Assembly: GCA_963667805.1 (NCBI GenBank) | Contig: OY764016.1 | Location: forward strand, 4,458,998 to 4,522,997 | Source: Candidatus Poribacteria bacterium | Lineage (GTDB): Bacteria; Poribacteria; WGA-4E; WGA-3G | Direction: 5' to 3' | DNA length: 64,000 bases | In this document: positions 3,347-62,985 of the stretch, piece after piece | Layout: each line of letters begins with the position of its first letter | How positions within the stretch are numbered: position 1 is the first letter of the stretch | Notes under the pieces: generated by a model | Told to the model about the DNA's origin: nothing | What the model saw: only the letters and a program-made list of their open reading frames with translations | Databases searched by the model: none | Made by a program: the position numbers and the translations under genes

Positions 3347-3559
3347 ATGCAACAGAACTACACTGCTGTCATCCAACAGAGCGACGGTTGGTGGATCGGA
3401 TGGGTGCAAGAAATCCCCGGTGTCAATTGCCAAGAACGGACCAGAGATGAACTCTTGGTTGCTTTAGAAATTACACTGCGCGAAACGATAGCTTACAATC
3501 GGAAAGAATCTCTCCAGGCAGCAGAAAGTCAACATGAGGAAGTAATCATCCAAATTTAG
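3347..3559 (+). CDS. hicB: HicB-family (UPF0150) type II antitoxin
   Basis: 70 aa. YTAVIQQSDGWWIGWVQEIPGVNCQERTRDELLVALEITL matches the HicB/UPF0150 core (YTAVIE..DG.Y.A.VPELPGC...G.T.EEAL.N..EA). Directly followed by a HicA-like ORF. Confidence 0.7.
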   Translation: MQQNYTAVIQQSDGWWIGWVQEIPGVNCQERTRDELLVALEITLRETIAYNRKESLQAAESQHEEVIIQI

Positions 3560-5667: not shown

Positions 5668-6876
5668 ATGAGCGGGACAGTTACCCCGACGCTCAGCGCG
5701 CAGCAGATCGCCGACTATCATGAGGACGGCTATGTAATTCTGCGGAATCTCTTATCGGCGAAGGAGGCAGATGAACTCCGGCGCGTCGTCCAGAAACAGG
5801 TAAAACGCGATGCCTATCCATCGACGCTCAAATATCCTGAGCCAGCGAAATATACAGTCAGTGGCAATCGTCTTGCCGACCCCGGACTCACCGCAATTGC
5901 CGAACATCCGGGGGTTGTCGGTGCCGTAGAATCCGCACTCGGTCAACCCGCGCACCTCACGGCGTATGTCGCGTATTTGCGGACACCCGGCGATAAAGGG
6001 GGTGGAGCGCACTGTGATTACAAACGCTGGCGACCTGTCGGGTCATCGATGAACTGGGTGTTCGCCATCATCCCACTGACCGATTTCGATACAGAATACG
6101 GTCCGTTTCTCGTGTCACCCAAATCACACAAGTTAACACAGGTGATTGATTCGGACGCACACATCTTAGATCTCGCGCGTCCTGATCCAGAGCAGTTGCC
6201 CGATTTCATTGATCCTGAACTCAAAGCAGGGGACTTACTTGTCGTCAACGAGCATGTGTGGCACGAAGCACCCCCCGGCACCACAACCGAAGATCGGTGC
6301 GGGATTTTCAATAAATATTGTGCGATTGACGCACCACCCGCCGCGGGATATTACCCTTACAATCCCACCGCTTTGGACGCATTGAGCGACGATGGGAAGC
6401 GTCTCATTCCTGTCTGTTTTGACAAGCCGATTACAACGACACGCCTGCTTATTGAGGATTCATCGAGCCAGGAATCGAAATTCCTGCTCCACCGCGATGT
6501 TGAAACAAATTCTTGGGCGTTGCCCGGCGGCGAAGGATGGGAAGAAGAGAAAGGTGTGGGTTGGGATGTCGGTGCGCGGATCGGTTCACTGCAAGATATC
6601 ACCCAAACCCAACTCGGTTTAGAGGTTCCTTGGATGTCCTATATTGAGGATGTTGAAGAGGGAGAGGGTATCTGTCGGATCTACGGTTTTTCTGATGAAA
6701 ACTTAGACATTGATGCACTTGCTAATAATGGTTGTGAATGGTTCACAAAATCTGAGTTAAAACAGCGGCTCGGCGAAAGTGATGCTATTTACGGTGCTGT
6801 TGATACATGGCAGCGATCGGATGTCATCCGGGGTAAAGGGAAGGCGTGTCGTCAAAGCCGACACCAGTTTGCGTAA
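5668..6876 (+). CDS. phytanoyl-CoA dioxygenase (PhyH) family protein with C-terminal NUDIX-like segment
   Basis: N-terminal YHEDGYVILRNLLS and HxD...H context are typical of PhyH-type 2OG-Fe(II) oxygenases. The C-terminal LLHRDVETNSWALPGGEGWEEEKG resembles a degenerate Nudix box. SD GAAGGAGG precedes the ATG. Confidence 0.6.
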   Translation: MSGTVTPTLSAQQIADYHEDGYVILRNLLSAKEADELRRVVQKQVKRDAYPSTLKYPEPAKYTVSGNRLADPGLTAIAEHPGVVGAVESALGQPAHLTAYVAYLRTPGDKGGGAHCDYKRWRPVGSSMNWVFAIIPLTDFDTEYGPFLVSPKSHKLTQVIDSDAHILDLARPDPEQLPDFIDPELKAGDLLVVNEHVWHEAPPGTTTEDRCGIFNKYCAIDAPPAAGYYPYNPTALDALSDDGKRLIPVCFDKPITTTRLLIEDSSSQESKFLLHRDVETNSWALPGGEGWEEEKGVGWDVGARIGSLQDITQTQLGLEVPWMSYIEDVEEGEGICRIYGFSDENLDIDALANNGCEWFTKSELKQRLGESDAIYGAVDTWQRSDVIRGKGKACRQSRHQFA

Positions 6877-6883
6877 ATTTCAT

Positions 6884-6978
6884 CAAACGGGTGTCCCCTC
6901 GCTGGCGAGGTTTCCTAACCTCGCCAAATTACCAAACGGGTGTCCCCTCGCTGGCGGGGTTTCCTAACCTCGCCAAAT
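6884..6978. repeat. two tandem copies of a 46-bp REP-like hairpin element (family A: GCTGGCGRGGTTTCCTAACCTCGCC)
   Basis: aaacgggtgtcccctcgctggcgaggtttcctaacctcgccaaat occurs twice back to back. The core GGCGAGG-TTTCCTAA-CCTCGCC is a perfect stem-loop. The same core recurs four times at 20085-20247. Confidence 0.75.
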
Positions 6979-7007
6979 CACATTTTTTCACAAGTTAGAA
7001 ACCTCGG

Positions 7008-7072
7008 AGGCTTTGAAGATTCTTTTAGGTCTAAACTCTTGTGGGAGGGCTTTGTAAGCCCGATTTTCTGTG
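7008..7072. repeat. approximately 65-bp composite REP-like element (family B core CTTGTGGGAGGGCTTTGTAAGCCCGATTTT)
   Basis: ggctttgaagattcttttaggtctaaactcttgtgggagggctttgtaagcccgattttct is near-identical (inverted) to the copies at 8785-8850 that flank the RAYT gene. It lies in the convergent intergenic space between two PhyH genes. Confidence 0.7.
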
Positions 7073-7074
7073 CC

Positions 7075-7977
7075 TTACGCTCCCATCTCAAGTCGCTTTT
7101 TCTGCTCTTCGAGCATCTTCTGCTGACGCTTGACGCGTTCTGGGACTAAACGTTCCCGCTGTGCCGTCGGTTTGAAATCCGATCTCTCTTTCCCTAATCC
7201 GTGCAGCACGGCTAATTCCACGGGTGAGAAATCGTCTGGATTTTCACGATTGAAATTCATCGGTTCCTTCAGGGAAACTGGCGGGTTCGTGATGAAACGG
7301 GCGCGTCCCGAAGGGTTCTGCGAAGCAGCGTGTAAGATAAACGGATGCAATAGCACAACGTCGCCTGCGTTCCCCGTGATTTCTACAAAGTCTTGGCATT
7401 TGTCAATGAGTTGCCCAAATCCGCCAGGCAACAATCCTTCTGGGTGTTCATACAACCGCTGTGCGACATGTTGGACTGAATCGCACGCCACAAACGTGCC
7501 ACCACTCTGGGGGTAGATATCCGACCAGACGACAATTGTGAGCAAACCCTGCTCCGGGCTATCTAAGAAATGACGGAAGAAATCGCCATCTTTGTGCCAC
7601 CCACCGACTTCTGGAGAAGGCGGTTGCCAGGGGGTGTCCGCGCCTAACCCAAAATTAATAATGAAACCGTCGCCCCATCCCGGTTTTGCGTCGCCCCAAA
7701 AATTGACAATCCTGTCTTCACCGCCAAGGAGATCACAGATGGCATCCCATGCCCTCGGTGCCACATCCTCGATCAAGACCCTATTCATAGAGGGCAGATG
7801 GACTCGGGGTTCTTCCCAAGTCGTCGGATCGTTTGGATCATAACCGAGTCGCTTAAAAGCGAAATCTTGCCATTCTTCTGCCAGTTCGCGCGGAAAGCAG
7901 TCTTTCAGAATAACATGTCCCTTCTCAGTGAAGTGGTTAATATCTTCTTGGGTAAGTGTTCTATAGGTTCTTGCCAT
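7075..7977 (-). CDS. PhyH-like 2OG-Fe(II) oxygenase family protein
   Basis: 300 aa. The N-terminal LTQEDINHFTEKGHVILKDCF resembles the PhyH N-terminal motif. The protein is a paralogue-like neighbour of the PhyH gene at 5668. Confidence 0.45.
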   Translation of the reverse strand: MARTYRTLTQEDINHFTEKGHVILKDCFPRELAEEWQDFAFKRLGYDPNDPTTWEEPRVHLPSMNRVLIEDVAPRAWDAICDLLGGEDRIVNFWGDAKPGWGDGFIINFGLGADTPWQPPSPEVGGWHKDGDFFRHFLDSPEQGLLTIVVWSDIYPQSGGTFVACDSVQHVAQRLYEHPEGLLPGGFGQLIDKCQDFVEITGNAGDVVLLHPFILHAASQNPSGRARFITNPPVSLKEPMNFNRENPDDFSPVELAVLHGLGKERSDFKPTAQRERLVPERVKRQQKMLEEQKKRLEMGA

Positions 7978-8088
7978 TTATAGGTTCCTTGTACTAAAGT
8001 TTGAACGGTTTTAGTTAAGATCAAAAGGAAGAGGCACAGGCTGACAGCCTATGCTACAAAGACAGGGTCATTCAATTGTCCGAAATCT

Positions 8089-8327
8089 CTCTTGTGGGAG
8101 AGGTTTTCAACCTCGATGACTCCATAGAAGATCGGGCTTACAAAGCCCTCCCACAAGAAGTCCATTTTTTCTGTAGGAAAGGTCTCAATCTTGAATCTTT
8201 GTGGGAGGGGTTTCTAACCTCGATACCTCCATCTCAACTTCTTGTGGGAGGGGTTTCCAACCCCGATACCTCCATCTCAACTTCTTGTGGGAGGGGTTTC
8301 CAACCCCGATACCTCCATCTCAAATTT
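8089..8327. repeat. REP array upstream of the RAYT gene: two inverted single copies plus three tandem 44-bp units
   Basis: ctcttgtgggagaggttttcaacctcgat occupies 8089-8117 and the inverted copy gggcttacaaagccctcccacaagaag occupies 8132-8158. Then cttcttgtgggaggggtttccaaccccgatacctccatctcaa is repeated three times across 8196-8327, with the last two units identical. Confidence 0.8.
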
Positions 8328-8789
8328 ACATCGCCAATATGGATAATCCCTTGCCACTTCAACAAGTCCCTTTCTGACAGGGTTCCCATAACAGTAGCGA
8401 ATCATTTCATTCAAAGCGGCCTCCCCTCGAATCCCGGTGTCGTGATACCCATCTTGCCAGAAGGTCCCTTCCTGTTTGAGCAATTTGTTAATCTGCCTTG
8501 CTGTAAAACGCTTGAGCGTATGCATAATGTCAGGTAAAGTATGCTGGGTGCGGAGTTGAATGATGGCGTGCAAATGGTCGGGCATAATCATGATACAGTA
8601 CCACCTGATACGCTCTTTGGTTTCAAGCCATTCAAAAGCATCAAAAATGATTTGGGCGATGCTGTCTTTTGTAAGAATCGGTGTGCGGTTGTGTGTGGTG
8701 GTAGTCAATAGATAGAAGGCTTCTGGCACTGAAGAGCGGCCTTTTCGCAATTGACGATAACCTTTCTTCTGACTATAATGCATTTTCAA
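8277..8789 (-). CDS. REP-associated tyrosine transposase (RAYT; IS200/IS605-like HUH-Y1 transposase)
   Basis: The HUH motif MPDHLHAIIQL and the catalytic-Tyr region GYHDTGIRGEAALNEMIRYCYGNP are present. It is flanked on both sides by REP copies in opposite orientation. The last 13 codons (VSGLETPPTRS) are read from inside a REP unit. Confidence 0.8.
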   Translation of the reverse strand: MKMHYSQKKGYRQLRKGRSSVPEAFYLLTTTTHNRTPILTKDSIAQIIFDAFEWLETKERIRWYCIMIMPDHLHAIIQLRTQHTLPDIMHTLKRFTARQINKLLKQEGTFWQDGYHDTGIRGEAALNEMIRYCYGNPVRKGLVEVARDYPYWRCKFEMEVSGLETPPTRS

Positions 8790-8898
8790 AGCCTTCAGAG
8801 AAAATCGGGCTTACAAAGCCCTCCCACAAGAGATTAGACCTAAAATAATCTTCAAAGCCTTCAGAGAAAATCGGGCTTACAAAGTCTTCCCACAAGAA
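8785..8898. repeat. two direct copies of the family-B REP composite on the other side of the RAYT gene
   Basis: cttcaaagccttcagagaaaatcgggcttacaaagccctcccacaagag occupies 8785-8832 and a second copy with two mismatches occupies 8852-8898, in opposite orientation to the 8089-8327 array. Confidence 0.75.
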
Positions 8899-9004
8899 AC
8901 TATTCTGATTTTTTAGGGGGTTTCTTTAAACAAAAACCCTAAAACTGAATGATCCTGCTGGCGACTTGGGTTATTATAACCTACAAGTATCCAGTTTCTT
9001 CACG

Positions 9005-10213
9005 TTATGTGATGCTATCCAACAGCGTTTTTACGAGTTTTGTTGCGAATTCATCGTCGTTGATGTGAGCGTCCATCTCAATAACCGTTACATTTTCACC
9101 GATGTGTGCCTTCAGATTCTCGGTCCATGCCGTGCGCGCTTCGGGAGAATCAAAGGGTTGTCCTGTTTTGTCAATCGCTGACACGCCTTGCGCCGGAATA
9201 ATAACTGTTGTAGGTCCCTGTGCTTCACTGAGTTTGCGTGCCATGATGCGTCCGAGTTCAGCCGTCTCTTCAGCGGTTGTCCGCATCAGTGTCACAGTCG
9301 GATTGTGCTGGTAGAACAACCGGTCGCTGAACTGCTCTGGCACTGTGTCGGGAGGACCGAAATTCACCATATCCAAGGCACCTGGCGCGACAACTTGCGG
9401 GAGTCCAGATGCGCCCGCGGCTTCCAACCGATCGGGACCGGCACTGAGGACCCCACCGACCAATTCATCAGCAAGTTCGGTTGTTGTCACATCTAACACG
9501 CCAGCGAGGAAACCCCCTTTGACGAGATCCTCCATCGCTTGTCCACCGGTACCGGTTGCGTGAAAAACGAGGACTTCATAACCCGCGGCTTCAAGAATTT
9601 CCATCGCTTTTGTGACACATGGGGTTGTCACACCGAACATCGTCGCCGCGATGAGAGGCTTGTCCGCTGTTGCCTCCGGCATTTCCGCGTTGACCATTCC
9701 AACGATCGCACCAGCGGCGTTGGCGAGAATCTGCCGTGACAATCGGTTAATACCGGCGATGTCCACAACAGAATACATCATAGTTATGTCTTTGGATTGG
9801 ACATACGGACTCGTGTCCCCCGATGCCAAGGTCGACACCATAATTTTCGGGACACCCACGGGGACTGCCTGCATCGCTGTCGTGCCGATGGTAGTGCCTG
9901 CGGAGCCACCGAGTGAGATGATCCCATCGATGTCGCCTGCTGCCTGTTTTTCAGCAACAAGCGCAGCGGCACCTTGTGCCATTACAGCGACACTGTTTCC
10001 TCGGTCGCCTTCATCTCTCAATGCCTGAAGGGATGAACCCCCGGCTTGTGCGACTTCATCCGCGGAAACGTCCGGCGTTAATTGCGGGTCTCCCAATATA
10101 CCCGTATTGATAACACACGTTGAAGTTCCAGTTGCTTCTATCTGCGCTTTGATAAACGCGAATTCCAAACCTTTCGTGTCCATTGTGCCGACAATACAAA
10201 CCGTCTTCGCCAT
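9005..10213 (-). CDS. UPF0261 family protein (Tm-1-like ATP-binding domain protein)
   Basis: MAKTVCIVGTMDTKGLEFAFIKAQIEATG..., approximately 400 aa, is typical of UPF0261. The likelier start is the second ATG (10213), preceded by GGAGG, rather than the track start at 10237. Confidence 0.65.
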   Translation of the reverse strand: MAKTVCIVGTMDTKGLEFAFIKAQIEATGTSTCVINTGILGDPQLTPDVSADEVAQAGGSSLQALRDEGDRGNSVAVMAQGAAALVAEKQAAGDIDGIISLGGSAGTTIGTTAMQAVPVGVPKIMVSTLASGDTSPYVQSKDITMMYSVVDIAGINRLSRQILANAAGAIVGMVNAEMPEATADKPLIAATMFGVTTPCVTKAMEILEAAGYEVLVFHATGTGGQAMEDLVKGGFLAGVLDVTTTELADELVGGVLSAGPDRLEAAGASGLPQVVAPGALDMVNFGPPDTVPEQFSDRLFYQHNPTVTLMRTTAEETAELGRIMARKLSEAQGPTTVIIPAQGVSAIDKTGQPFDSPEARTAWTENLKAHIGENVTVIEMDAHINDDEFATKLVKTLLDSIT

Positions 10214-10258
10214 ACCCGAATTCCTCCACTTGTCCATACATTTCAGACTTACGCTAAT

Positions 10259-10528
10259 TTATTCTCCGTTTGACGCTAAAGCCCTCTGGAAATCCTCTGG
10301 ACTTTCCGCTAAAATTGCGGCGCGATGCAACTGCTTAAGGCGTTGAGAATCCTCAATTGCTTCTAATACCGGCTTGAAAGTGCGTGCCGCATCCGGCTGT
10401 AATCGAAGCTCCAATGCTTCAAGGATATCCTCACGGGCGCGTTCTTTCATGCCTTGTTCAAGTCCCTGTTGGTGTGCTTCTGCCGCTGCTTTCTCTGTCC
10501 AGTATTCGATAATATTAGGTTGCTGCAT
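10259..10528 (-). pseudogene. 3' fragment (DUF4351-like C-terminal domain) of an Rpn/YhgA-like PD-(D/E)XK nuclease gene split by an IS630 insertion
   Basis: NIIEYWTEKAAAEAHQQGLEQGMKE...LKQLHRAAILAESPEDF aligns with the C-terminus of the intact paralogue 21484-22428 (VETAAEERYQQGIEQGTRQ...LKQLNLAASIARSFRAF). Confidence 0.6.
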
Positions 10529-12757: not shown

Positions 12758-12857
12758 CACACCTTCAGGTGTGCGAAACATAGAAAAGGTATAAAAGGTT
12801 AGGTTCAGATAAGGAATGGATTTATTAATCCCTGGATCCGTTCTTGATTTTGAAAGA

Positions 12858-12947
12858 GTTAGCAGTTAGCCGTTAGCCGTTAGCAGCAACAAAAGAATTT
12901 ATCAACATTCTCTTTAACTGACAACCGACAACTGACAACTGACAACT
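12858..12947. repeat. two heptanucleotide microsatellites: (GTTAGCM)x4 and (TGACAAC)x4 (imperfect), in the 5' region of the LTD surface-protein gene
   Basis: agttagcagttagccgttagccgttagcagc occupies 12858-12888. ctgacaaccgacaactgacaactgacaact occupies 12918-12947. Confidence 0.6.
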
Positions 12948-20084: not shown

Positions 20085-20247
20085 GCTGGCGAGGTTTCCT
20101 AACCTCGCCTTGCTCACCATCTCCGCGCTCCTCTGCTGGCGGGGTTTCCTAATCTCCCCGTTCCCCCTGCTGGCGGGGTTTCCCAACCTCGCCTTTTTTG
20201 TCAGTATCAGGATTTGTCTAACTGCTGGCGGGGTTTCCGAACCTCGC
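20085..20247. repeat. four same-orientation REP family-A hairpins in the intergenic region
   Basis: The copies are GCTGGCGAGGTTTCCTAACCTCGCC at 20085-20109 and variants at 20134-20158, 20168-20192 and 20223-20247. Confidence 0.75.
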
Positions 20248-20313
20248 CATGATATTCTACTTGATAAAAGATAGGGGTTTTGCTAAAATTATCAAAACAA
20301 AGCACATGCCGGC

Positions 20314-21261
20314 ATGGATACGGAGGAGATTATGGAGACCCTAAACGATTTTCAAAGTAAACAACGAAAATATATGCCTGTCTTTCCAAACGCGAGCGGG
20401 AAACCGACCGTTTATATCGAAGGCTACCCTTCCGAGGATGAAGACCCCATGCCAGCAGGTGAATTTCATGGGATGCAGATGCATACCTTATTTGACCAAT
20501 TCTTACGATATTTTCAGGCACACCCGCATATCCATGTGAGTATGGACAACTTTATCTACTACCGTGAAGGCGATCTGAGAAAGGTCGTTTCTCCCGATGT
20601 GTATGTCGTCTTGGGGGCTGCGAGACTTCCCTTGCGAAGGAGTTTTTATACGTGGGCAGAAGGCACTGTGCCAACGGCAGTTTTTGAGTTTCTTTCGGAT
20701 GCGACAGGGGCTCAGGATCGCGATGAAAAGATAGAGGTATATCTACGGGATATAGGGGTTGCGGAGTATTTTATCCATCAACCCGATATGAATCGCCCGA
20801 TAGAATTTCGGGGATGGCGGCGGGATGCGGTAGGCACCATCATTGAGATTGAACCGGATGAAGCGGGTGGTATTTTCAGTGCGTCCTTAAATCTGTATTT
20901 GCGATGGGAACTCCATGAGGCGTGGGAGCTGCGGCTTTTACGTCCGTATCTGCCGGATGGCACCCCGATAACGACTTCTATGGAGGAGGAGCACCTTCGG
21001 CTGGAGGAGCGACGCCTTCGGCAGGAAGAGCAACGCCTTCGGCAGGAAGAGCAACACCTTCGGCTGGAGGAGCAACACCTTCGGCAGGAAGAGCAACGCC
21101 TTCGGCAGGAAGCGGAGACGCGCGCGGCGGAAGAGGCACAACGCAGAAGGGAAGCGGAGACGCGCGCGGCAGAAGAAACACAACGCAGACGCGAAGTAGA
21201 AGCCGAGTTAGAACGGCTCCGGGCACAATTGGTGAACTCCCGAGATAGCGATATGTCCTAA
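20314..21261 (+). CDS. Uma2-family (DUF820) PD-(D/E)XK endonuclease-like protein with C-terminal coiled-coil octad repeats
   Basis: The Uma2 core is GEFHGMQMHTLFDQ...PDVYVVLG...FEFLSDAT...KIEVYLRDIGVAEYFIHQPD. The C-terminus is (EEQRLRQ/EEQHLRL)n followed by ETRAAEEAQRRREAETRAAEETQRRRE. Confidence 0.7.
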   Translation: MDTEEIMETLNDFQSKQRKYMPVFPNASGKPTVYIEGYPSEDEDPMPAGEFHGMQMHTLFDQFLRYFQAHPHIHVSMDNFIYYREGDLRKVVSPDVYVVLGAARLPLRRSFYTWAEGTVPTAVFEFLSDATGAQDRDEKIEVYLRDIGVAEYFIHQPDMNRPIEFRGWRRDAVGTIIEIEPDEAGGIFSASLNLYLRWELHEAWELRLLRPYLPDGTPITTSMEEEHLRLEERRLRQEEQRLRQEEQHLRLEEQHLRQEEQRLRQEAETRAAEEAQRRREAETRAAEETQRRREVEAELERLRAQLVNSRDSDMS

Positions 21262-27780: not shown

Positions 27781-28095
27781 ACGTCCAAAATTTTCTCCTT
27801 TTACTATTAGCCACACGGAATAGAGCGAGCTACGCCGTTTAAAACTAAATCCTAACACAATATGGCAAAAATGTCAAGAAATTTTTTAATTTTCCTTGCG
27901 GAGGAACAATGAGCGTTAAGACTATAACGTGCGTTCCTTAGATCCGCCTGCGTGTTTTTGATAGGGTATTTCTGTGTATTGTTGCAGGCTCACATTTTTG
28001 ACACTATGTCTGATCAAGCAATGGATGCTTCCAAACTACCTCAAGCAAAAACGCCTAACATAACGTGTCGGATTTAAGGTATAATTAATTCAATT

Positions 28096-28131
28096 GTCAA
28101 AATCTCTGTTGTGGGAGGGGTTTGTAACCCC
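28096..28131. repeat. solitary REP family-B copy
   Basis: ctgttgtgggaggggtttgtaaccccgatttatgc. Confidence 0.7.
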
Positions 28132-28235
28132 GATTTATGCGGCCAGAGGCATTCAATTATCACAAATCTCGGCTCTGGAGAAATGAACTGCAAAGTTCAA
28201 ACTTCCGTGCCTTATCCGCAAGGTAAATTAAAAAT

Positions 28236-31211: not shown

Positions 31212-33770
31212 CTACCGAATCACTGAAATATGGAGCGGACGGGTTGCTGAGCGACCCTCCGCATCCACGCACGTTAGCACATGTTTTCCCCTGGCAGGCG
31301 TAAGCCAGTATTGCTCTCCCGCATTTCCTTGAAAAATTAACTCACCATCCAAAAACCAGAACAGTTCCTGCGTCCGACTGGAAGCCGAGGCGGTCAACCG
31401 AATCTTTTGGTTTTCCAGTGGCACCCCCTCCCGAATGTAATAGGTAGTGTCTTCTGCTGGGGATAAAATAATCGGGACGTTCCCTGCAATTGTGCCGGTA
31501 CACAAGGGATTATGCGCCGGTAGGACAGACACAGCAAAACCATTCTCTGCCAACCACGTCGCCGCATCGGCGGGCCACTCCTCAAATATTTTTTTATAGG
31601 GTCCAGTTGACCCATCATTATTTCCCCAACAATGGGAACAGAGACTGTATCCTGTCGATTCGTCAACATAGATAGGTTTATGAATCGCGCAAACCGCTAC
31701 AGACGAAACACCGGGTATATACACGTCCTCCTTATGGGTGGGACAGTGCGGCGAAACCGGTGCGCCACTCAGGGTACACACTTGTCGTGTTTTCAATTGT
31801 TCTGGTTTGGTAAACCAGTGGTGTGTGTCTTGTCCTGTCAAGGCAGTGAAGAGCGCGAATAGGATCGGAGTTGCTGCATCTGTGCCGCTCAGCATGGGTG
31901 TCCCCTTTCCATCGAAATTACCGAGCCATACACCGATTGTGAAAGTCGGGGAGTACCCGATGCACCATGCATCTCGGTGTCCATAAGACGTCCCAGTCTT
32001 CCACGCAATCTTTGGTAGGTTCATTGTCCTTTCAAACGCTTCTGGATTTTTAACCGTGTTGGTAGGGAGTTGTGAGTTTGTTAACATCTCGGTTATGATG
32101 AAGCTGGTCTCTTGTCGGAGTAAACGTTTGGAATAGTTTTCAGTTTTCGGTTGATGAGGCTTTGTCAATTGATAAGGTCCAAATTCTCCCATATTTGCCA
32201 GTCCAGCGTAAAGTGTTGTCAATTCGAGTAGATTCACTTCGCATCCGCCGAGAACCATAGAGAGTCCGTATTTCTGGGCAGGCGCGAGTGTAGAGATACC
32301 GGCTTTTTTGAGGAAGGCGTGTAGTGTCCTATTTTTCAAGCGTGCATTAAGATTAACGGCGGGGACATTGAGAGAACGTGCGAGGGCTTGACGGGCAGTG
32401 ACATAACCGTTATATTTCCCATCATAGTTCACCGGTGTATAGTCAGCATAGGTAACGGGGACATCGAATAACAGTGTTTCGGGTGTAATCAAGCCCTCTT
32501 CCATTGCCAGGGCATAGACGAAGGGTTTGAGTGCAGAACCCGGAGAACGCGGGGCGAGCGTCCCATTTATTTGTCCTAATGCCTTCCGGTCGAAAAAGTC
32601 GTGGGAACCTACCATTGCTAAGATATGGCGGTTTTGGGTATCCATGACGATGATTGCGCCTGTGCTGGTGCTATGAGACCCGCGCAAACTCGGCTTACGC
32701 GCTGCGTCCACCAGATATTCGTTAAGGATGCGTGTCGCGATATCCTGAACCTTGGCGTCTATTGTCGTGTGTATCCTGCCATTTGTTATCCGTGAGTGGG
32801 AGGGGTTTCTAACCCCGGATTTCTTCCGGTTTTCTTTAATCAATAGGCGTGAGAGGTGTGGTGCTTTAAATGGAAGTGAATAGCGTTTATGCGGAATCGG
32901 TTCTTGGACTGCCTCCTGCCACTGCTGTTCGGAAATTTGTCGGCGTGCCAGGAGACGATTCAGGACTTTTTCGCGTGCCTTTCGGGCGTTTTCTGGGAAC
33001 CTGTCAGGGCGTAAACGTTCTGGAGCGTTCGGAATGGCGGCGAGAAGTGCGGCTTCCCCAAGACTAAGCGTATGCTGGGGTTTGTTGAAGTAGAACCGCG
33101 AGGCTGCCGCTGTTCCGACTATATTCCCACCATACGGGAGCATGTTAAAATAAAACGTTAAAATCTCTGATTTGGAATAAGCGTGTTCAAGTTGAAAGGC
33201 ACGGAACATCTCAATGAATTTGTTCGGAATGTTACGCGCCTTAGGTTCCATCAATCGGGCGAGTTGCATGGTGATGGTTGAACCCCCGCGGACAACTTCA
33301 CCCGCTTTCAAATTGTCATAGATGGCTGTTGCAATCGATACAGGATTGATACCGTAATGATAGTAGAACCACCTATCTTCTGATGTGAGTATTGCTTGGT
33401 GGAGTAAGGGGGAATAGGTATCGGGTGTTCCGTTTGTCTCGTGGTGAGAATCTTGGGTTAAGGAGGGGACTGATTTATTGAAGATCTGTTGTGATTGATG
33501 ACTAAATCGCCACATGCCATCGTCGGCTAAAAATGCTCGAAGCCACTCGCCGTTTCTGTCCAACACAATCTGAGATACAGGGGGATGGAGACGTGCTTTG
33601 GGTAGCGGGAAACACCAGTTTGCGAGCATAAAGAGGATGACAATCAACAAGAAAGATAGCATTACAGTCATCAGTCCTCCGAAGAGGGGGTGTCGGTTAT
33701 AAGAGGGGCTTGTTAGACGAAGACCTCTTAACTGAAAATTGAAAACTGAAAACTGAAAACTATTCATCAT
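31212..33770 (-). CDS. pbpC: penicillin-binding protein 1C (PbpC-type bifunctional transglycosylase/transpeptidase)
   Basis: GT51 motifs are EDRWFYYHYGINP, GGSTITMQLARL and KSEILTFYFNMLPYGGNIVG. A transpeptidase domain and the PBP1C C-terminal domain follow. Its start overlaps the upstream A2M gene stop by 4 nt (ATGA). Confidence 0.8.
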   Translation of the reverse strand: MMNSFQFSVFNFQLRGLRLTSPSYNRHPLFGGLMTVMLSFLLIVILFMLANWCFPLPKARLHPPVSQIVLDRNGEWLRAFLADDGMWRFSHQSQQIFNKSVPSLTQDSHHETNGTPDTYSPLLHQAILTSEDRWFYYHYGINPVSIATAIYDNLKAGEVVRGGSTITMQLARLMEPKARNIPNKFIEMFRAFQLEHAYSKSEILTFYFNMLPYGGNIVGTAAASRFYFNKPQHTLSLGEAALLAAIPNAPERLRPDRFPENARKAREKVLNRLLARRQISEQQWQEAVQEPIPHKRYSLPFKAPHLSRLLIKENRKKSGVRNPSHSRITNGRIHTTIDAKVQDIATRILNEYLVDAARKPSLRGSHSTSTGAIIVMDTQNRHILAMVGSHDFFDRKALGQINGTLAPRSPGSALKPFVYALAMEEGLITPETLLFDVPVTYADYTPVNYDGKYNGYVTARQALARSLNVPAVNLNARLKNRTLHAFLKKAGISTLAPAQKYGLSMVLGGCEVNLLELTTLYAGLANMGEFGPYQLTKPHQPKTENYSKRLLRQETSFIITEMLTNSQLPTNTVKNPEAFERTMNLPKIAWKTGTSYGHRDAWCIGYSPTFTIGVWLGNFDGKGTPMLSGTDAATPILFALFTALTGQDTHHWFTKPEQLKTRQVCTLSGAPVSPHCPTHKEDVYIPGVSSVAVCAIHKPIYVDESTGYSLCSHCWGNNDGSTGPYKKIFEEWPADAATWLAENGFAVSVLPAHNPLCTGTIAGNVPIILSPAEDTTYYIREGVPLENQKIRLTASASSRTQELFWFLDGELIFQGNAGEQYWLTPARGKHVLTCVDAEGRSATRPLHISVIR
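32795..32828. repeat. REP family-B copy embedded in frame inside pbpC (encodes KSGVRNPSH)
   Basis: gtgggaggggtttctaaccccggatttcttcc lies within the open reading frame, in the TG-TP linker region. Confidence 0.6.
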
Positions 33771-36700
33771 TCTGGGACCACTGTAATGCGCATGCTACCC
33801 GTTACAGCGGATTTTGTTGTATCGTACATCGCCTCGGCGGCAATGGGAGGTAAGGTAAATTCGCCTTGTGTGACGGCGCGTAGCGCGTAATAGAATTTAC
33901 GTTCGCGTTGGCGGGGAAACGTGCCGAAGAAGATTAGCCTGTCATCGCGAATATCAATATAATCCGGTTTGAAATCTTGTGTTTTCAACCATGAAATACC
34001 TGCTCGGGATTCTAATCTCGGATTCTCAATTTCGAATCCCGTAGGCAGCATATCTACGACGACAACATTTTCAAGGTTGGCGGTGAGAGCTTTAACGTTT
34101 ATCTCAGCGATGATGAGTTCTCCGTGTGCGAAGGGGCCTGTCCGTTCTTCACCGTCTTTGTTAAAATAGCGTCTGCGGACCTGTAATTCGTGCTCGTATT
34201 CTTCGATGAAGGAATCGCGTTGGATGCCAAACGCGCTCCAATAATAGTAGCAACTGCCCTCACCTTTAACAGAAAGTTGGACACGCATCCCATCCCATAT
34301 TTTATCGGTATAACGGGTCTCCGTTGCGTCGAAGTCGGCGAAATGTTCGCCATTAAGCGTTAGGGTACCCGTGTAATTTCTATCCATCTGTTTCTTCAGA
34401 ATCTTGCCGAGTGCCAGAAACGCAAAGGCGTTTTCTTGTGTTGTTGCCCATCGGTTCCCTTCAGCTGCTGCAGCACTTAGGTTTTGGACGAGCATTGGGA
34501 TTGACGGGTGGTTTTTGTTAACTTCAGCAAGAACGTCTAACATGATGGCTTGGGCTCGAATAGGGGAATCAAGCGTTCCGCCTGTCTCGCGATGTCCGTT
34601 GCCTTTATTAAAATTGGGTGATACTGACACGGGTAGCATTGACAGGGCGGTTTCCAGTTCGCCGCTGAGAGCGAACGCACCTGCGAGTTGGAAATGGCTA
34701 TAATCGCTGAGTCCGCTCAAACCTCTGTTTTTCAGATAGTGCATCGTGCCTCGGTCGGGATGTCCAGCAGCAGCTAAGACGTAAGCGGCATAGGTTGCTA
34801 ATGAAATCTTCTTTCTTATCTCTTGGGCTTCGTTTTCTGTGTTTGGCGAGAATTTCGCTTCCGTTCTTAGACCTTCCAGCATTGCGTCATAAACCCGGTC
34901 TGAGACCTCGTAGCCTGCCTTTCGTGCCTCGACGAGGAAGTGAGACGCATAGATACTGCTCCATGGGTTCACGTAAGTGCCGCCGGGCCAATAAGCGAAA
35001 CGATCGTCTGACTTCAACATACTTTCGATTTTTGTGATACCCGATGTGATGTAGTGATCCACCGAGTCTTCTGCTGCCAGCATCGGTTCAACACTTCGTG
35101 CCAAACCGCTGAAGTAAAGCAGCGGAAAAACCTTGCTCGTTGTTTGTTCGAGACAGCCGTGCGGGTAACGTATAAGGTAACGGAGACTGTCCGCAAACCT
35201 AATATTGGGGAACGGAGATAACGTGAGGCTAAACTCTGACGAATCGGGTATTAAATTTGACGGGAAAATAAAATCAGCAGGTTCACCTGCGCGGACCACG
35301 CCCTGTCCGGTTTGTGTAACAGGTGGAGCCACGGAACGCAGTGGGATTTTAACGTCTAATTGTGTTGTTTGTGTCTTACCGTGCGCCGAAAGATTGAAGT
35401 TGGCTTCCCCGATTGCGTCCTGAACGAGAAGATCGAAAAAAACTTGTGCTTCTGCGCCTGCGTCGACCTTCTGGTTTATACTGAGTTTGTCTGCTGTATA
35501 TTGGCTATCGGAAACCATCGGAGACTGTTGGTTTTCAGCAGAGCGGTGCTCTTGTTGATCACTGGCTATTGATGGATCGTTATTGGCAGCCATTGCTGAA
35601 AGGAGTTGCACGTCGCCTGATGCTTGCAATTCGACCGTAAATTCCTCTTCCGCGCCCGTGCCGTTAAAGAGGGTAACCGGGACCCGAACCTTATCACCAC
35701 CCGCAAGGAATCGTGGAAATGTCGGGGTTAAGACAATAGGTTCGCGGACAGTCAGATGTGCTTCTGTGCCACCGTAATCGCCACCCGCGAATGCGACTGC
35801 CATCAACCTGAGTGTCCCATTGAACTGCGGGATTTTGAATTGAACAGTACCGCGACCATTTCCATCGGTTTTCACGAATCCTGACCAGAGTGAAATCGGT
35901 TTTACGCGCCGGATGCTGCCTGTGCTCAATCGCTTCCGCAGTTCCGCCTGTCGTGTCGTGGCTGCATCTCCCCCCGTACTTGAGTTGTCGATAACATTTG
36001 CGATTTCGGGGAGGATCCCACTATACACGTCGAAGGAGCGCGTCTTAAGCCCACGCTGTCTATAGAAGTAAGCGTGTGGGTTGGGTGTTTTGAAATCGGT
36101 TAACACGAGGATCCCTTCATCAACGGCTGCAATACAGACATCATATTTTTGCCAAGAACGTCTACCGTGAACTTGGAACGCTATAGTCACCTCGCTATTC
36201 GGTAGGACTGTCGCTGCGCTTTCTATATTCTTTTCTGGACTGGCGAGTGGAATCTTCTCCATATCACCAGCATCGTTTCTCTGATTGAGCGACATTTCTA
36301 TCGAAAGTTGTCTCCGTGTTTCATCTATTTTGAGTGGAATTACCCCAAACGCGCGCGCCGGGAGCGGCGACTTCTTAGCAGTTGTAGGAGGGGTTTGTAA
36401 CCCCGATTCCATCGGGATGGCGCGCGTCAACGTCGCAGAGAGATACACATTCGGTCTATAGGCATAACGGATTGGGATTGATAAAGTTGTGGTGTTATTT
36501 TTCATCACGACTGTCCGGTAACTCAACACCTTTTCCCGTTCGATCGTCAGCAGGAGTGTGCCCGGAAACGGTGCCTTAACATATAGTTTTGCTGTTTGTC
36601 CGGGACGGTAAGCAGGCTTATTAAGCGTCAGTTCCAGTCGAGTGGGATGTTCCATAGAAACTGGAATGTTTCCCCATCCGCTGACATAAAATCCGAGTTC

Positions 36701-39466
36701 TGCTGTCGCTGTCGAGGCGATGTCCTCAAGACGGACGCGGTATTCACCATAATCTGAGGGCGTTAAGGTCACTGTCTGGACTGTTTCTGCTGAAGTTAGT
36801 GTGACCGTTTCCACTTCTGTTGTTTGAGGTTCCGAGACGTACGCATAGCGCCCGGCACCGTTCTGACGGAGTATCGTGTTCCAGTGGACTTTGTGGAGAC
36901 TGAGTTTGAGGTCTCTTCCGGGGGCAACTGCCATTGTATCGTTAACAGCAATGTAATCGAATCGGAGCGGTTGGTTGATTTTTACATCCCCGGTCTTTGT
37001 GCGTCGGAGTCCAACGTAATGCGAATAGGGATGGATCACAACGCTGTGAGAAGCGGTGACGGCTCTGCCGCCGACTTCGCTAACGGTCGCTGTCAGCGTG
37101 CCGTTTAGCAGAGAAGGTGCTTTCAGCGTTTCAGGGATCGTGAATTGATAGGACGCTTTACCCGCTGCATCGGTTTTAACTTCTCCCAATCCAATTCTTT
37201 GTTTTTCAAAATTGGAACGCGCATTCCCGAAGACAAACGAGTTCCACTGTGTTGCACTTGCGTTGGCTGCTGAATTTACAAACGAGACTGCTTCCAATTC
37301 GCAGGAAGCTTCCACCGTGCGCCCTACTGCTGGGGGACCGAATAGATTGATAGCGGACACTTCAATACCGAGTTCCTCTCCAAGTTTATAAGTGGATTTA
37401 TCCGCTGTTACAGCGACTTTTATCCGATCAGGCATAAATTCTTCGACCTGAAATTGGACTCTTCCAACGACCCGATCAGCGATCCGCATCTTGGCAATAT
37501 AATTACCAGTCAAGGCGTAGGTAGGGATAGGAATTTCTACATCGCAGGCACCGCTTTTGTTTGTTTGTAGTCTTAACTCCCGCATAATTCTGCCGTTTGG
37601 GGAGAGCACTTCAATCTTGGCAGGGAGCGGTTGTGGTGTTACCTGCTTTGGTCCTCGAACAATTCCAGCAAGTTGGACGGTTTCACCCGGACGATAGACC
37701 CCTCTGCTTGTGTAGAGGAACGCTTCATAACCTTTTTGCAGGTAGGCAGAACCGGCAATGTTGAAATCTGCTGTTGCGATTTCGTGTCGGTCGAGTTGAA
37801 CGAAAGCGAGATCGTCCCGTTTCGCGGCGGTGATCATAAACGGTGTGAAGTCTTCAGTCTTCTCCACAACGTCTGTGAACTGGATGTATCCTGCCCAGTT
37901 GGTTGTCCCATCGAGGAGTGTTTGGTTATTATCGCTGATGAGTTTAACGCGCGCCGCTGGGACTGCCGAACCCGTCGCGAGTGATTTCACCCAAACGTAT
38001 AGGTTATCTCCTAAGCGTTTGGCAGTGATACCCAAGTCTGTGATGAGCACCCATTGATGCGCACTATCCCACTCCCGCTCTGCGTTTCGCGCCACGACCT
38101 TAAAGATGCCGACATGTTCGTCTGAGAGATATTCTTCCAAGGAGATAGGTGTTGTTACCTCTTCGTTCAATTGGGACGGAATATCGAGTTCTTCTGTCCG
38201 AATCGGTTTACCTAAGTTTCTGCTCCAGCGACTCCATCGTTCTAATTTTGATATGTAGATAAGGTTGTTCGCGAAAACTTTTTCGATATTGAGTTTCACG
38301 CTTTTAACATTGATTGTTGCGAGACCTAAATTCAGATGCCCCTTTCTCGCGAGGAAGAAACCGTCGCCAAGGAATCGAAGTTGGGGTCGGATATCTGGGA
38401 TTCTGAGGCGCGTCCTGTAATCTTGTTTTAAAACGGCATCGTTTCGGGCTGTGAGACCGCGTCGGATCTTTAGCGTGTAGGTCGTGCGCCGTTTGAAGTT
38501 GCCGTGAATCTGCACGTTTCGATAGTCGGATGTCACTTGATGTGCTACTGCGGGGGTCAGTTCTATATACGGCTTGATGGCATCGCTGAGTACCGGCGCG
38601 CTGAAGCTCACCGAGATATACGGCGTTCCATCACTTTCCCAAACGTCAGCGTATGTCACACCGAGTGTGCCTCTCCCGCGGAGTATGACCGGTGTAACAC
38701 TCGCTTTTTCTAAACCAATTTTCCCACCCGTACATTTGAACCCTTTTTCAATCTTAATCTTTATCTCTTGATCTGCGTTGCCGCGTTTTATACGCTGCGT
38801 CTCGAATGTTACTGTCCGCGCTGTTGCTGTGTTGGTTTGAATCTGGTATGGAATTTCTGTTTCGTCGTCCAGTTCAATAGAGAGGTGTGCCTTTAAATCG
38901 ACAATGGTTACAGGATAATTAAATGCTATCGTCCCAAAACCTGTTGCGTGTTCGCGGGCATCATTGGCGGTAAATTCCATACGTGCCTGCTGCACTGCAA
39001 AAGGATCCGTAGCAAATTTAAACTCTTTTTGTCCAGTGAGTAGAAATGTCTCAGATGGGTTGAGTTCTGGGGTGAGTTGAACAGTATATTGTGCGGAGGG
39101 TGCTAAGGGTGCGTCTAAAAAGAAACCGACTCTGTCCCGCGCGATCCAACGGGCAGCGCCTTGGACAGCTGGTGTGAACCGAAGTGCCTCTGCTGGAACT
39201 TCGGTCCCGACACGCGACTTATCAATAACCGCTTCCGAGAACGTAATCGACAAATCAACCCATTGTGGAACCTCACCTTGTGGGCTGAAGGTCTTGACAC
39301 TGTATCGTGTCCGAGCACGCATGGGCCCCTGTACAATATAGACGATACAGGCAGCAAGGAGTAAGGACATGAGTCCGATCACACCGATTAAGCTTTTTAA
39401 GAGCAAATTTCGACTTCCGGGTTTCGCCGAAAGATTTGTGGAGAGTTTGGCTGCCATCAGACGCAC
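33767..39466 (-). CDS. bacterial alpha-2-macroglobulin family protein with intact thioester motif (YfhM-like)
   Basis: 1899 aa, N-terminal membrane anchor, MG-domain repeats. The thioester CLEQ lies in YLIRYPHGCLEQTTSKVF. It is cotranscribed with pbpC as in the classic yfhM-pbpC pair. Confidence 0.85.
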   Translation of the reverse strand: MRLMAAKLSTNLSAKPGSRNLLLKSLIGVIGLMSLLLAACIVYIVQGPMRARTRYSVKTFSPQGEVPQWVDLSITFSEAVIDKSRVGTEVPAEALRFTPAVQGAARWIARDRVGFFLDAPLAPSAQYTVQLTPELNPSETFLLTGQKEFKFATDPFAVQQARMEFTANDAREHATGFGTIAFNYPVTIVDLKAHLSIELDDETEIPYQIQTNTATARTVTFETQRIKRGNADQEIKIKIEKGFKCTGGKIGLEKASVTPVILRGRGTLGVTYADVWESDGTPYISVSFSAPVLSDAIKPYIELTPAVAHQVTSDYRNVQIHGNFKRRTTYTLKIRRGLTARNDAVLKQDYRTRLRIPDIRPQLRFLGDGFFLARKGHLNLGLATINVKSVKLNIEKVFANNLIYISKLERWSRWSRNLGKPIRTEELDIPSQLNEEVTTPISLEEYLSDEHVGIFKVVARNAEREWDSAHQWVLITDLGITAKRLGDNLYVWVKSLATGSAVPAARVKLISDNNQTLLDGTTNWAGYIQFTDVVEKTEDFTPFMITAAKRDDLAFVQLDRHEIATADFNIAGSAYLQKGYEAFLYTSRGVYRPGETVQLAGIVRGPKQVTPQPLPAKIEVLSPNGRIMRELRLQTNKSGACDVEIPIPTYALTGNYIAKMRIADRVVGRVQFQVEEFMPDRIKVAVTADKSTYKLGEELGIEVSAINLFGPPAVGRTVEASCELEAVSFVNSAANASATQWNSFVFGNARSNFEKQRIGLGEVKTDAAGKASYQFTIPETLKAPSLLNGTLTATVSEVGGRAVTASHSVVIHPYSHYVGLRRTKTGDVKINQPLRFDYIAVNDTMAVAPGRDLKLSLHKVHWNTILRQNGAGRYAYVSEPQTTEVETVTLTSAETVQTVTLTPSDYGEYRVRLEDIASTATAELGFYVSGWGNIPVSMEHPTRLELTLNKPAYRPGQTAKLYVKAPFPGTLLLTIEREKVLSYRTVVMKNNTTTLSIPIRYAYRPNVYLSATLTRAIPMESGLQTPPTTAKKSPLPARAFGVIPLKIDETRRQLSIEMSLNQRNDAGDMEKIPLASPEKNIESAATVLPNSEVTIAFQVHGRRSWQKYDVCIAAVDEGILVLTDFKTPNPHAYFYRQRGLKTRSFDVYSGILPEIANVIDNSSTGGDAATTRQAELRKRLSTGSIRRVKPISLWSGFVKTDGNGRGTVQFKIPQFNGTLRLMAVAFAGGDYGGTEAHLTVREPIVLTPTFPRFLAGGDKVRVPVTLFNGTGAEEEFTVELQASGDVQLLSAMAANNDPSIASDQQEHRSAENQQSPMVSDSQYTADKLSINQKVDAGAEAQVFFDLLVQDAIGEANFNLSAHGKTQTTQLDVKIPLRSVAPPVTQTGQGVVRAGEPADFIFPSNLIPDSSEFSLTLSPFPNIRFADSLRYLIRYPHGCLEQTTSKVFPLLYFSGLARSVEPMLAAEDSVDHYITSGITKIESMLKSDDRFAYWPGGTYVNPWSSIYASHFLVEARKAGYEVSDRVYDAMLEGLRTEAKFSPNTENEAQEIRKKISLATYAAYVLAAAGHPDRGTMHYLKNRGLSGLSDYSHFQLAGAFALSGELETALSMLPVSVSPNFNKGNGHRETGGTLDSPIRAQAIMLDVLAEVNKNHPSIPMLVQNLSAAAAEGNRWATTQENAFAFLALGKILKKQMDRNYTGTLTLNGEHFADFDATETRYTDKIWDGMRVQLSVKGEGSCYYYWSAFGIQRDSFIEEYEHELQVRRRYFNKDGEERTGPFAHGELIIAEINVKALTANLENVVVVDMLPTGFEIENPRLESRAGISWLKTQDFKPDYIDIRDDRLIFFGTFPRQRERKFYYALRAVTQGEFTLPPIAAEAMYDTTKSAVTGSMRITVVPE
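36384..36411. repeat. REP family-B copy embedded in frame inside the A2M gene (encodes ESGLQTPPT)
   Basis: gtaggaggggtttgtaaccccgattcc. The protein reads ...IPMESGLQTPPTTAKK.... Confidence 0.55.
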
Positions 39467-52491: not shown

Positions 52492-52690
52492 CTTTTAATT
52501 GTACCTTGCGGTTAAATGGTATGATTTTGGACTTTAGCATTGTTTTCTCGAATCCGCTCTCCAAATGTAAAGCAAAGACAAATTATGCCATTTAAGGCAT
52601 AATTTCATTACGAGCTACGCAATTTTAGGCTATACGAATTTTTTAATTATACCTTTTGCCCGTCCGGGACGATGTGCTGAAGTCGATTAT

Positions 52691-62855: not shown

Positions 62856-62985
62856 TTTAATAGTTATCAGTTAACAGTTATCAGTTAAAGCGGGTGTTTC
62901 CCTGCGATAGTTCTAACGCCTCTTGGAACTGATAACCGACCACTGAGAGGAAAACCCGAAGGGTTTCCGGACTGACGGTTATTCT

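Follow-up and report, generated by a model that had tools for sequence, protein, structure and literature searches.

A probable REPtron in Candidatus Poribacteria: a RAYT gene set among copies of its cognate REP

A small gene surrounded by short hairpin repeats in a Candidatus Poribacteria genome raises the question of whether it is a REP-associated tyrosine transposase (RAYT) among its own REP elements or the transposase of an insertion sequence. RAYTs are HUH/Y1 single-strand DNA endonuclease-transferases related to the TnpA proteins of IS200/IS605 elements, and RAYT-REP systems have been described since 2010. Poribacteria are a phylum of uncultured sponge symbionts, and full-text literature searches found no papers treating RAYTs or REPs in this phylum. 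A canonical IS200/IS605 element would carry a TnpA gene with its own left-end and right-end (LE/RE) hairpins and optionally TnpB, would move by single-strand peel-and-paste, and would account for the repeats as insertion sequence ends or MITE derivatives. Here we describe the locus within a 64-kb stretch of DNA (the window, to which all coordinates refer). We conclude that it is very probably a REPtron, that is, a single RAYT gene set among copies of its cognate REP.

The gene occupies 8277..8783 on the minus strand and encodes 168 amino acids from the ATG at 8783 to the TGA stop at 8277-8279. The mechanically called open reading frame (ORF; 8277-8789, minus strand) opens at a TTG at 8789, and alignment places the start of the homologues at the ATG at 8783. 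It is the sole ORF within 7950-9030, a region bounded by the UPF0261 (Tm-1-like) gene at 9005-10237 and the PhyH-like dioxygenase gene at 7075-7977, both also on the minus strand. No TnpB or other transposase gene adjoins it among the ORFs and annotated neighbours, and tblastn found no second RAYT in the 64-kb window.

The protein scores 134.2 bits against the NCBIfam equivalog model for REP-associated tyrosine transposases (NF047646, REP_Tyr_transpos; cutoff 80) and 39.7 bits against the IS200/IS605 equivalog (NF033573), which is under the cutoff of 55. The Pfam match is to the generic Y1_Tnp domain only, and a single-sequence search of PDB sequences puts an ISDra2-type TnpA first, above TnpAREP. 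When a profile of 30 relatives is compared with the PDB, the top match is TnpAREP of E. coli (4ER8, E = 3.7e-13). Protein homologues already carry the label 'REP element-mobilizing transposase RayT' from one source.

The translation contains the HUH motif (MPDHLHAII) and the tyrosine motif (RYCYGNPVRKG). In 170-residue numbering, the HUH motif is H72-L-H74, the catalytic tyrosine is Y132 and NPVRKG spans 136-141. In the profile alignment Y132 coincides with the catalytic Y115 of TnpAREP, and PDHLH with PEHMH; the catalytic residues named for TnpAREP are Y115, H59 and H61 (PMC3479197). RAYTs are distinguished by an NP(L/V)(R/K)xG motif beside the tyrosine and by a conserved threonine near the N-terminus (Nunvar et al., PMC2817692). 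Both are found here, the first as N136-P-V-R-K-G141, thus NP(V)(R)xG, and the second as T29, which aligns with the threonine of FFTVN in 4ER8. This threonine varies among the Poribacteria relatives and is an isoleucine in the clade of the relative P0047. The alignment of 30 relatives shows no variation at H72, H74, Y132, N136, V138, R139 or G141, and almost none at P137.

An AlphaFold2 model built on the alignment has a mean pLDDT of 85.3, with residues 21-160 mostly above 90. A Foldseek search of the PDB with this model returns 4ER8 first (rmsd 2.2 A over 137 columns, 18% identity), while the TnpA proteins of IS608 and ISDra2 superpose at an rmsd of 7-8 A. Of the solved structures, that of TnpAREP, a Group 2 RAYT (PMC5581495), is the closest, at low identity. 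The core of the gene has a dN/dS of 0.05-0.26 in six orthologue comparisons and of about 0.1 in the informative ones; because of these low values across orthologues, the gene is taken to be kept by selection. The ORF at 8277-8783 (minus strand) encodes a RAYT whose active site is intact and which is under purifying selection.

The repeats around this gene follow a single plan. The cognate REP is (TCTT)GTRGGA, a 6-bp stem, a 3-nt loop and GAT, in which the two 6-mers of the stem are complementary. A search for GTGGGA-6-3-6-GAT with up to 3 mismatches found 11 matches in the 64-kb window, whereas shuffled sequence gives an expectation of 0.05. The stems in the window are GGGGTT/AACCCC, GGGCTT/AAGCCC and GAGGTT/AACCTC, and the copies carry a GTGG tag, except one with GTAG. 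Pairing was assessed on 251 copies of GTRGGA-N15-GAT, with the stem unconstrained, in about 1 Mb of collected loci. Each of the six positions of the stem is Watson-Crick in 92-97% of copies. The fourth occurs as G-C (147 copies), A-T (51) and C-G (32), and is Watson-Crick in 231 of the 251 copies (92%), against a shuffle mean of 112 (45%); none of 2000 shuffles reached this count. A near-identical REP, with A-T as its fourth stem pair, is also present in Chloroflexia (Ca. Chloroheliaceae) genomes.

A single REP hairpin is weak as DNA (-4.4 to -5.7 kcal/mol), and for two of three variants the fold is no more stable than in shuffled sequence. Because single REPs do not stand out by folding energy, the structure is argued from covariation, essentially at one stem position. 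Across the loci the tag is GTAGGA in 125 copies and GTGGGA in 110, with the GA after the tag unpaired; the 3' GAT is present in 216 of 243 copies and TCTT 5' of the tag in 105 of 243. The REP therefore has what marks the GTAG-tagged REP superfamily: a short, G+C-rich hairpin whose 5' foot carries an unpaired tetranucleotide resembling GTAG.

Seven copies surround the RAYT ORF, at 8094 (+), 8131 (-), 8201 (+), 8244 (+), 8287 (+), 8804 (-) and 8870 (-). Read along the gene, a pair of forward REPs comes first, then the RAYT ORF, a tandem array of three reverse REPs and finally an inverted REP doublet. The forward pair occupies 66-bp modules on the 5' side of the gene (8785..8898, minus strand); the core at 8804-8827 is intact and that at 8870-8893 is degenerate, with 2 mismatches and a broken stem. 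The array at 8197..8326 (plus strand, reverse relative to the gene) consists of three head-to-tail units with cores at 8201-8224, 8244-8267 and 8287-8310. TRF reports 8199-8323 with a period of 43, 2.9 copies and 97% matches, and in a repeat search neighbouring 43-bp units are identical. The doublet at 8090..8158 pairs cores at 8094-8117 (+) and 8131-8154 (-) across a 13-nt spacer, with the GTGGGA tags outside, and 8088-8162 folds as a single long DNA hairpin (-17.6 kcal/mol, z = -5.1). This inverted pair with its short spacer and joint hairpin has the form of a REPIN.

With forward REPs on the 5' side of the gene and reverse REPs on the 3' side, the GTRG tags face outward, and the gene is flanked by mutually inverted REPs with at least two on each side (8804 and 8870 on the minus strand; 8201, 8244 and 8287 on the plus strand). 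Regular alternation of the kind that defines a BIME is not seen: both arrays are head-to-tail, with periods of 43 and 66, and alternating orientation is confined to the doublet 8094/8131.

The 3' end of the gene is itself made from a REP. Reverse-complemented, the REP unit at 8283..8318 (plus strand) gives the final 11 codons, VSGLETPPTRS, and the stop. Most relatives are 157 amino acids long and end in YPYWRCKFEME. The relatives P0001-P0013 (77-98% identity) instead read into the abutting REP (SGLETPPT, SGLKTPPT, SRLETPPT and similar) and stop after a further 11-15 residues; P0015, at 76% identity, is without such a tail. The overlap is common to all of P0001-P0013, so it arose a single time and was retained. 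In this one subclade the abutting REP took the place of the original stop codon and added a tail of 11-15 residues, which is predicted to be disordered (pLDDT below 50). Overlap of a REP with the 3' end of a RAYT gene has been recorded elsewhere as '3'ov' (PMC3733652), and E. coli TnpAREP has a C-terminal tail that is inhibitory to its active site (PMC3479197). By analogy, and speculatively, the REP-encoded tail could act as an autoinhibitory tail.

A preliminary description of this DNA had recognised a RAYT flanked by oppositely oriented cognate REPs, with both motifs in the ORF and a 3' end read from a REP, and the features it described do lie at the coordinates it gave. The family model, the profile and fold matches to TnpAREP, the motifs, the layout in relatives, and the lack of TnpB and of IS200-type ends all bear this out. 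Some details of the layout are revised. The tandem array does comprise three units, but of 43 bp and not 44; the sides called 'upstream' and 'downstream' are right as plus-strand terms, the gene itself being on the minus strand; and the arrangement said to be BIME-like is one in which each array is head-to-tail and only the two sides of the gene are mutually inverted.

Several features near the REPs resemble transcription terminators. A hairpin with a T-rich tail lies beyond the REP arrays at 8034..8054 (minus strand) and is probably the end of the RAYT transcription unit. Each forward REP hairpin 5' of the gene is followed by GATTTTCT, which is terminator-like, and GGGCTT variants with GATTTTCT in forward orientation fit the terminator pattern. 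Given these patterns at the REPs and at 8054-8034, the REP elements may also shape transcript ends, and the hairpins probably serve in addition as terminators. An Rfam search of 6500-10500 with E up to 1 gave no match, and a promoter scan of the RAYT gene strand found nothing beyond shuffle expectation.

The same pairing of gene and repeat is found in related genomes. A 98%-identical RAYT on the scaffold L003 sits at the syntenic UPF0261/PhyH site among cognate REPs. The 85%-identical (L001) and 78%-identical (L123) RAYTs sit at another, mutually syntenic site, between VTT_dom and GFO_IDH genes. The order forward REP, RAYT, reverse REP is shared by L001, L003 and L123, and hence by two different gene neighbourhoods. 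On the 5' side of the gene L001 has three forward REPs and L123 six, those of L123 forming a 43-bp array. At both loci the gene's 3' end is overlapped by a reverse REP, beyond which more reverse REPs lie. The layout is not universal, since L002, with a 71%-identical RAYT, has four REPs that are all forward and all 3' of the gene. In the collected loci, which had been picked by REP content, head-to-tail neighbours (55) outnumber inverted ones (28). Related genomes hold 22 doublets with the tags outside, 19 of them with spacers of 19-22 nt.

More distant RAYTs are accompanied by different repeats. L127 (62% identity) has six forward and three reverse REPs of the form GTAG-C-CGGGGCA-TCT-TGCCCCG, and L128 (44%) has a flanking REP of the form GTGGGA-GGGGCA-TTCC-TGCCCC-GAT. 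Inverted flanking REPs are present at L127 and also at L124. The clade of P0025 has GTAGC-CGGGGCA arrays, that of P0096 has GTGGGA-GGGGCA, and that of P0047 has the GCTGGCG family. In all, four diverged RAYT clades are each flanked by a distinct REP of their own.

The GCTGGCG family is represented in the window as well. Six copies of GCTGGCGRGGTTTCCTAACCTCGCC start at 6901, 6950, 20085, 20135, 20169 and 20224 (in 6901-6974 and 20085-20248), with a stem of 9-10 bp (-11.7 kcal/mol). In L124/L125 (OX638351.1) a 154-aa RAYT of about 60% identity has GCTGGCGRGGTTTCCTAACCTCGCC 21 nt before its ATG and an inverted copy just past its stop. Because it flanks the RAYT there, GCTGGCGRGGTTTCCTAACCTCGCC is taken to be the cognate REP of the P0047 clade; tblastn found no RAYT of that clade encoded in the 64-kb window.

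Copies of the cognate REP are also dispersed. In the window, a copy of the 66-nt module with its REP core at 7041-7064 lies at 7000..7071 (plus strand), between convergent genes and adjoining two REPs of the GCTGGCG family. A second copy is intergenic (28111..28134, plus strand). Two others lie inside genes. One, REP-like with 2 mismatches and the tail GGA (32796..32819, plus strand), falls in the transglycosylase-transpeptidase interdomain linker of a PBP1C gene (31212-33770, minus strand). The other, a GTAGGA variant (36384..36407, plus strand), is in frame in the bait-region domain of the adjoining alpha-2-macroglobulin gene (33767-39466, minus strand), where it is read as SGLQTPPT. Orthologues of this gene have unrelated sequence of similar length at the REP position, and in one 92%-identical relative the REP unit is duplicated in tandem, in frame (36 bp), between identical flanks. 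The earlier count of at least eight other places in the window holds only when two cores are pooled, as four cognate copies and six copies of GCTGGCGRGGTTTCCTAACCTCGCC; the cognate REP alone accounts for four, and the second core, which had been read as the same REP, belongs to a different family that flanks a P0047-clade RAYT elsewhere.

A scan with GTRGGAGGGNTTNNNAANCCCGAT of one genome per species (596 Gb), for which about 9 chance matches are estimated, matched at least 119 separate 8-kb stretches, and nearly all of the matches listed are from Candidatus Poribacteria. Matches are spread along chromosomes, falling for example in at least 12 8-kb bins over 5.4 Mb in OX638351.1. Taken with the names attached to the protein homologues, these matches place the source of the window in a Poribacteria genome. 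With the four additional copies in the window, the at least 119 stretches and the four clades, the REP belongs to a dispersed family that co-varies with the RAYT.

A mechanism can be proposed by analogy with E. coli TnpAREP, the model system for these proteins (PMC3479197, PMC3333891). The RAYT would bind the folded REP hairpin on single-stranded DNA (TCTTGTGGGAGGGGTTTCCAACCCCGAT) and read the 5' GTRG tag base-specifically. The third and fourth bases of the tag (A/G and G) would select a CT cleavage site. Tyr132 would cut at a nearby CT, which is available in the conserved TCTT 5' of the tag, and would form a covalent intermediate with the DNA. Strand transfer would then copy or move REPs and REPINs, building both the flanking arrays and the dispersed copies.

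Evidence of change at these loci is of three kinds. In three genomes (L130-L132) whose UPF0261 proteins are 95-96% identical, the PhyH-like gene is directly next, with a spacer of 36-188 bp. No RAYT gene was called in these three spacers, and no REP was seen on reading them. The whole RAYT-REP unit of about 0.9 kb is thus present or absent at the UPF0261/PhyH site; insertion and deletion are not separable there, since divergence of the intergenic flanks obscures the junctions. Secondly, the length of the REP array differs between the window and the near-identical L003, a comparison that is unreliable because the short-read scaffold has an N run in the array 5' of the gene. Thirdly, the REP duplication in alpha-2-macroglobulin is a cleaner case of copy-number change than the L003 array. 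Head-to-tail arrays with identical units can grow by replication slippage, without a transposase. The data show recent whole-unit changes and do not prove transposase-driven activity. The suggestion in the preliminary description that the family is active or recently expanded finds only partial support, in array copy numbers that differ between near-identical strains; slippage or an assembly effect, and not transposition, could explain these differences.

Among other explanations, the one that survives best is that the whole REPtron is a still mobile or horizontally acquired cassette and not a fixed, vertically inherited gene. The unit is at the UPF0261/PhyH site in the window and in L003 and missing there in the three genomes, and the 78-85%-identical relatives are at the different VTT_dom/GFO_IDH site. 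Deletion, or differential loss of old paralogues, would explain this distribution equally well, and the diverged flanks allow no target duplications to be defined. Inverted REP ends misfit the single-strand excision chemistry of the family, and surveys find RAYTs to be mostly single-copy and vertically inherited (PMC5581495). We regard a mobile cassette as unlikely. Two non-standard readings, one in which the whole cassette is still relocating in Poribacteria and one in which REP units are being co-opted as coding sequence, are distinctly improbable. The second draws on the conserved RAYT tail and on the in-frame, copy-variable REP in the hypervariable bait region of alpha-2-macroglobulin. If true, relocation of the cassette would go against the idea that RAYTs are fixed and domesticated genes present in single copy.

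There is only a slim chance that the RAYT is a relic or has an unrelated role, with the REPs being host elements (terminators or mRNA stabilisers) that spread by slippage or recombination and an adjacency that is historical. The identity of adjacent 43-bp units, the whole-unit tandem nature of the strain differences, the fit of forward REPs with the GATTTTCT tail to terminators and the decay of one flanking copy agree with such an origin. Against it stand the strong purifying selection with all catalytic residues intact, the four clades with REPs of their own, which are hard to explain without specific recognition, and the single copies at unrelated loci, some in genes, which slippage cannot make. 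Membership in the IS200/IS605 insertion sequences is scarcely credible: the generic Pfam match, the first place of ISDra2-type TnpA in the single-sequence search and the absence of the unit from the same site in related genomes would suit it, but the score against the IS200 model is below its cutoff and that against the RAYT model far above its own, TnpAREP is first in the profile and fold searches, the RAYT-specific motif is present, TnpB is absent, the neighbours are UPF0261 and PhyH genes, only one gene copy is in the 64-kb window, and the hairpins are mutually inverted, not on one strand, and are REPs of 24-28 nt found singly at many places.

The REPtron reading can be set beside the known systems. 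E. coli TnpAREP (YafM, PDB 4ER8; PMC3479197, PMC3333891) has its HUH motif and catalytic tyrosine at the same positions, and its gene likewise lies between oppositely oriented REPs, which are short hairpins with a 5' GTAG-type tag and a CT dinucleotide near the tag. The two proteins share only 18% identity in the structural alignment. The E. coli enzyme needs a bulge in the REP stem, whereas the Poribacteria stem is a perfect 6 bp, and the tag here, unlike that of the E. coli REP, is GTGG or GTAG with an unpaired GA after it. The E. coli arrays are alternating BIMEs, whereas those of Poribacteria are head-to-tail. TnpAREP has a long autoinhibitory C-terminal tail; the canonical Poribacteria RAYT of 157 amino acids ends about 8 residues after YPYW, and the subclade of the RAYT described here has a REP-encoded tail in place of a TnpAREP-type one.

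The REP itself shares its design with the GTAG-1 and GTAG-2 families of Pseudomonas and relatives (Di Nocera et al. 2013, PMC3733652), in which two unpaired bases separate tag and stem and the stem is followed by a conserved motif of 3 bp. As here, their stems are 6-9 bp with loops of 2-3 nt and complementary stem variants, and the same survey accepts GTRG and GTGG tag variants and reports both REPs within genes and 3'ov REPs. Candidatus Poribacteria are absent from that survey. Unlike in GTAG-1 and GTAG-2, GTGG is as common as GTAG here (110 against 125), and head-to-tail dimers, rare in most of the surveyed genomes, outnumber inverted ones. The doublets resemble the REPINs of P. fluorescens (Bertels and Rainey 2011, PMC3116915), which are also inverted with a fixed spacer (19-22 nt in the related Poribacteria genomes). 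The TnpA proteins of IS608 and ISDra2 share the HUH/Y1 fold, the chemistry and the recognition of single-stranded hairpins, and their poor superposition would be expected if the RAYT is a cis-acting monomer like TnpAREP. The unit described here differs from IS200/IS605 elements in its lack of same-strand LE/RE hairpins as well as of TnpB and in its sub-cutoff score.

The locus is an ordinary but well-preserved RAYT/REP pairing by the features that define such systems. It leaves existing knowledge unchanged, because RAYT-REP systems are known and annotation models already recognise the protein. It is of use as a clean and thoroughly documented example from a phylum of sponge symbionts, in which several RAYT clades, each with a distinct REP, occur side by side. 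The public long-read Poribacteria genomes form a natural panel for studying the co-evolution of RAYT specificity with REP sequence. The same panel is suited to following array change between near-identical strains and the entry of REPs into coding sequence.

Three related genomes (L130, L131 and L132) have an empty site: UPF0261 is the direct neighbour of the PhyH-like gene, no RAYT gene is called between the two, and the spacer that separates them (L130 5210-5397, L131 5210-5397, L132 5210-5245) showed no REP. The genome of L130 appears to carry a RAYT of the same clade instead at the VTT_dom/GFO_IDH site, the location occupied in L123.

Copies of the cognate REP are also found inside coding genes. 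One lies at 36384-36407 in the alpha-2-macroglobulin gene (33767-39466, minus strand), where it is in frame within the bait-region domain and is translated as SGLQTPPT. The orthologues of this protein have unrelated sequence at that position. In a 92%-identical relative (L133 1640-1830) the REP unit is tandemly duplicated, with a length of 36 bp, in frame and with identical flanks; the gene on that contig is called in several pieces. The adjoining PBP1C gene (31212-33770, minus strand) holds a degenerate REP-like copy, GTGGGAGGGGTTTCTAACCCCGGA, at 32796-32819, which falls in the linker that joins the transglycosylase domain to the transpeptidase domain and is translated in a different frame as SGVRNPSH.

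The window ORF at 8076-8537 (plus strand) is REP-derived and spurious. In two RAYT homologues from the databases (P0008 and P0015) the N-terminal extension MWEGFVSP... is the translation of forward REPs upstream of the gene, and the start codons of both were probably mis-called. A REP nearly identical to the cognate one, GTAGGAGGGATTTCYAATCCCGAT, occurs in many copies, some of them in tandem, in Chloroflexia / Candidatus Chloroheliaceae genomes (L012, L027, L028, L034, L040, L041, L061, L064, L068, L070 and L083).

Several other repeats are present in the window. A 17-nt inverted repeat with perfectly adjacent arms (TTTTAGGGGGTTTCTTT/AAACAAAAACCCTAAAA, 8911-8944) lies between the UPF0261 stop codon and the first REP and may form the transcript-end hairpin of that gene. 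The 20-nt motif CCGCAAGGAAAAATTAAAAG occurs seven times (27882-27901 and 52492-52511 on the minus strand; 57760, 58337, 59190, 59966 and 59987 on the plus strand) versus 0.01 expected. At six of these sites it is 0-22 nt upstream of an ATG, which it abuts directly at three, and twice it is found as a tandem pair. It also precedes the PhyH-like gene in L130 and L131, and is probably a shared ribosome-binding leader. Short tandem heptanucleotide arrays of four to five copies (12857-12886, 12916-12947, 33730-33761 and 62857-62888), one of them at the 5' end of the PBP1C gene, have the units AGTTAGC, AACTGAC, AACTGAA and TTAACAG and recall the heptamer repeats of filamentous cyanobacteria. Tandem repeats of 21, 42 and 63 bp (CACCTTCGGCAGGAAGAGCAA and related sequences, 20992-21196) within the ORF at 20314-21261 (plus strand) presumably encode a repetitive protein segment.

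A second REP family, GCTGGCGRGGTTTCCTAACCTCGCC, has a 9-10-bp stem and lacks the GTAG tag. Its six window copies form two intergenic clusters (6901-6974 and 20085-20248). In another Poribacteria genome (L124) this family is found at 2956-2979 and 3470-3495, on either side of a RAYT of 154 aa that belongs to another clade, so the transposase of the second family is expected elsewhere in the source genome.
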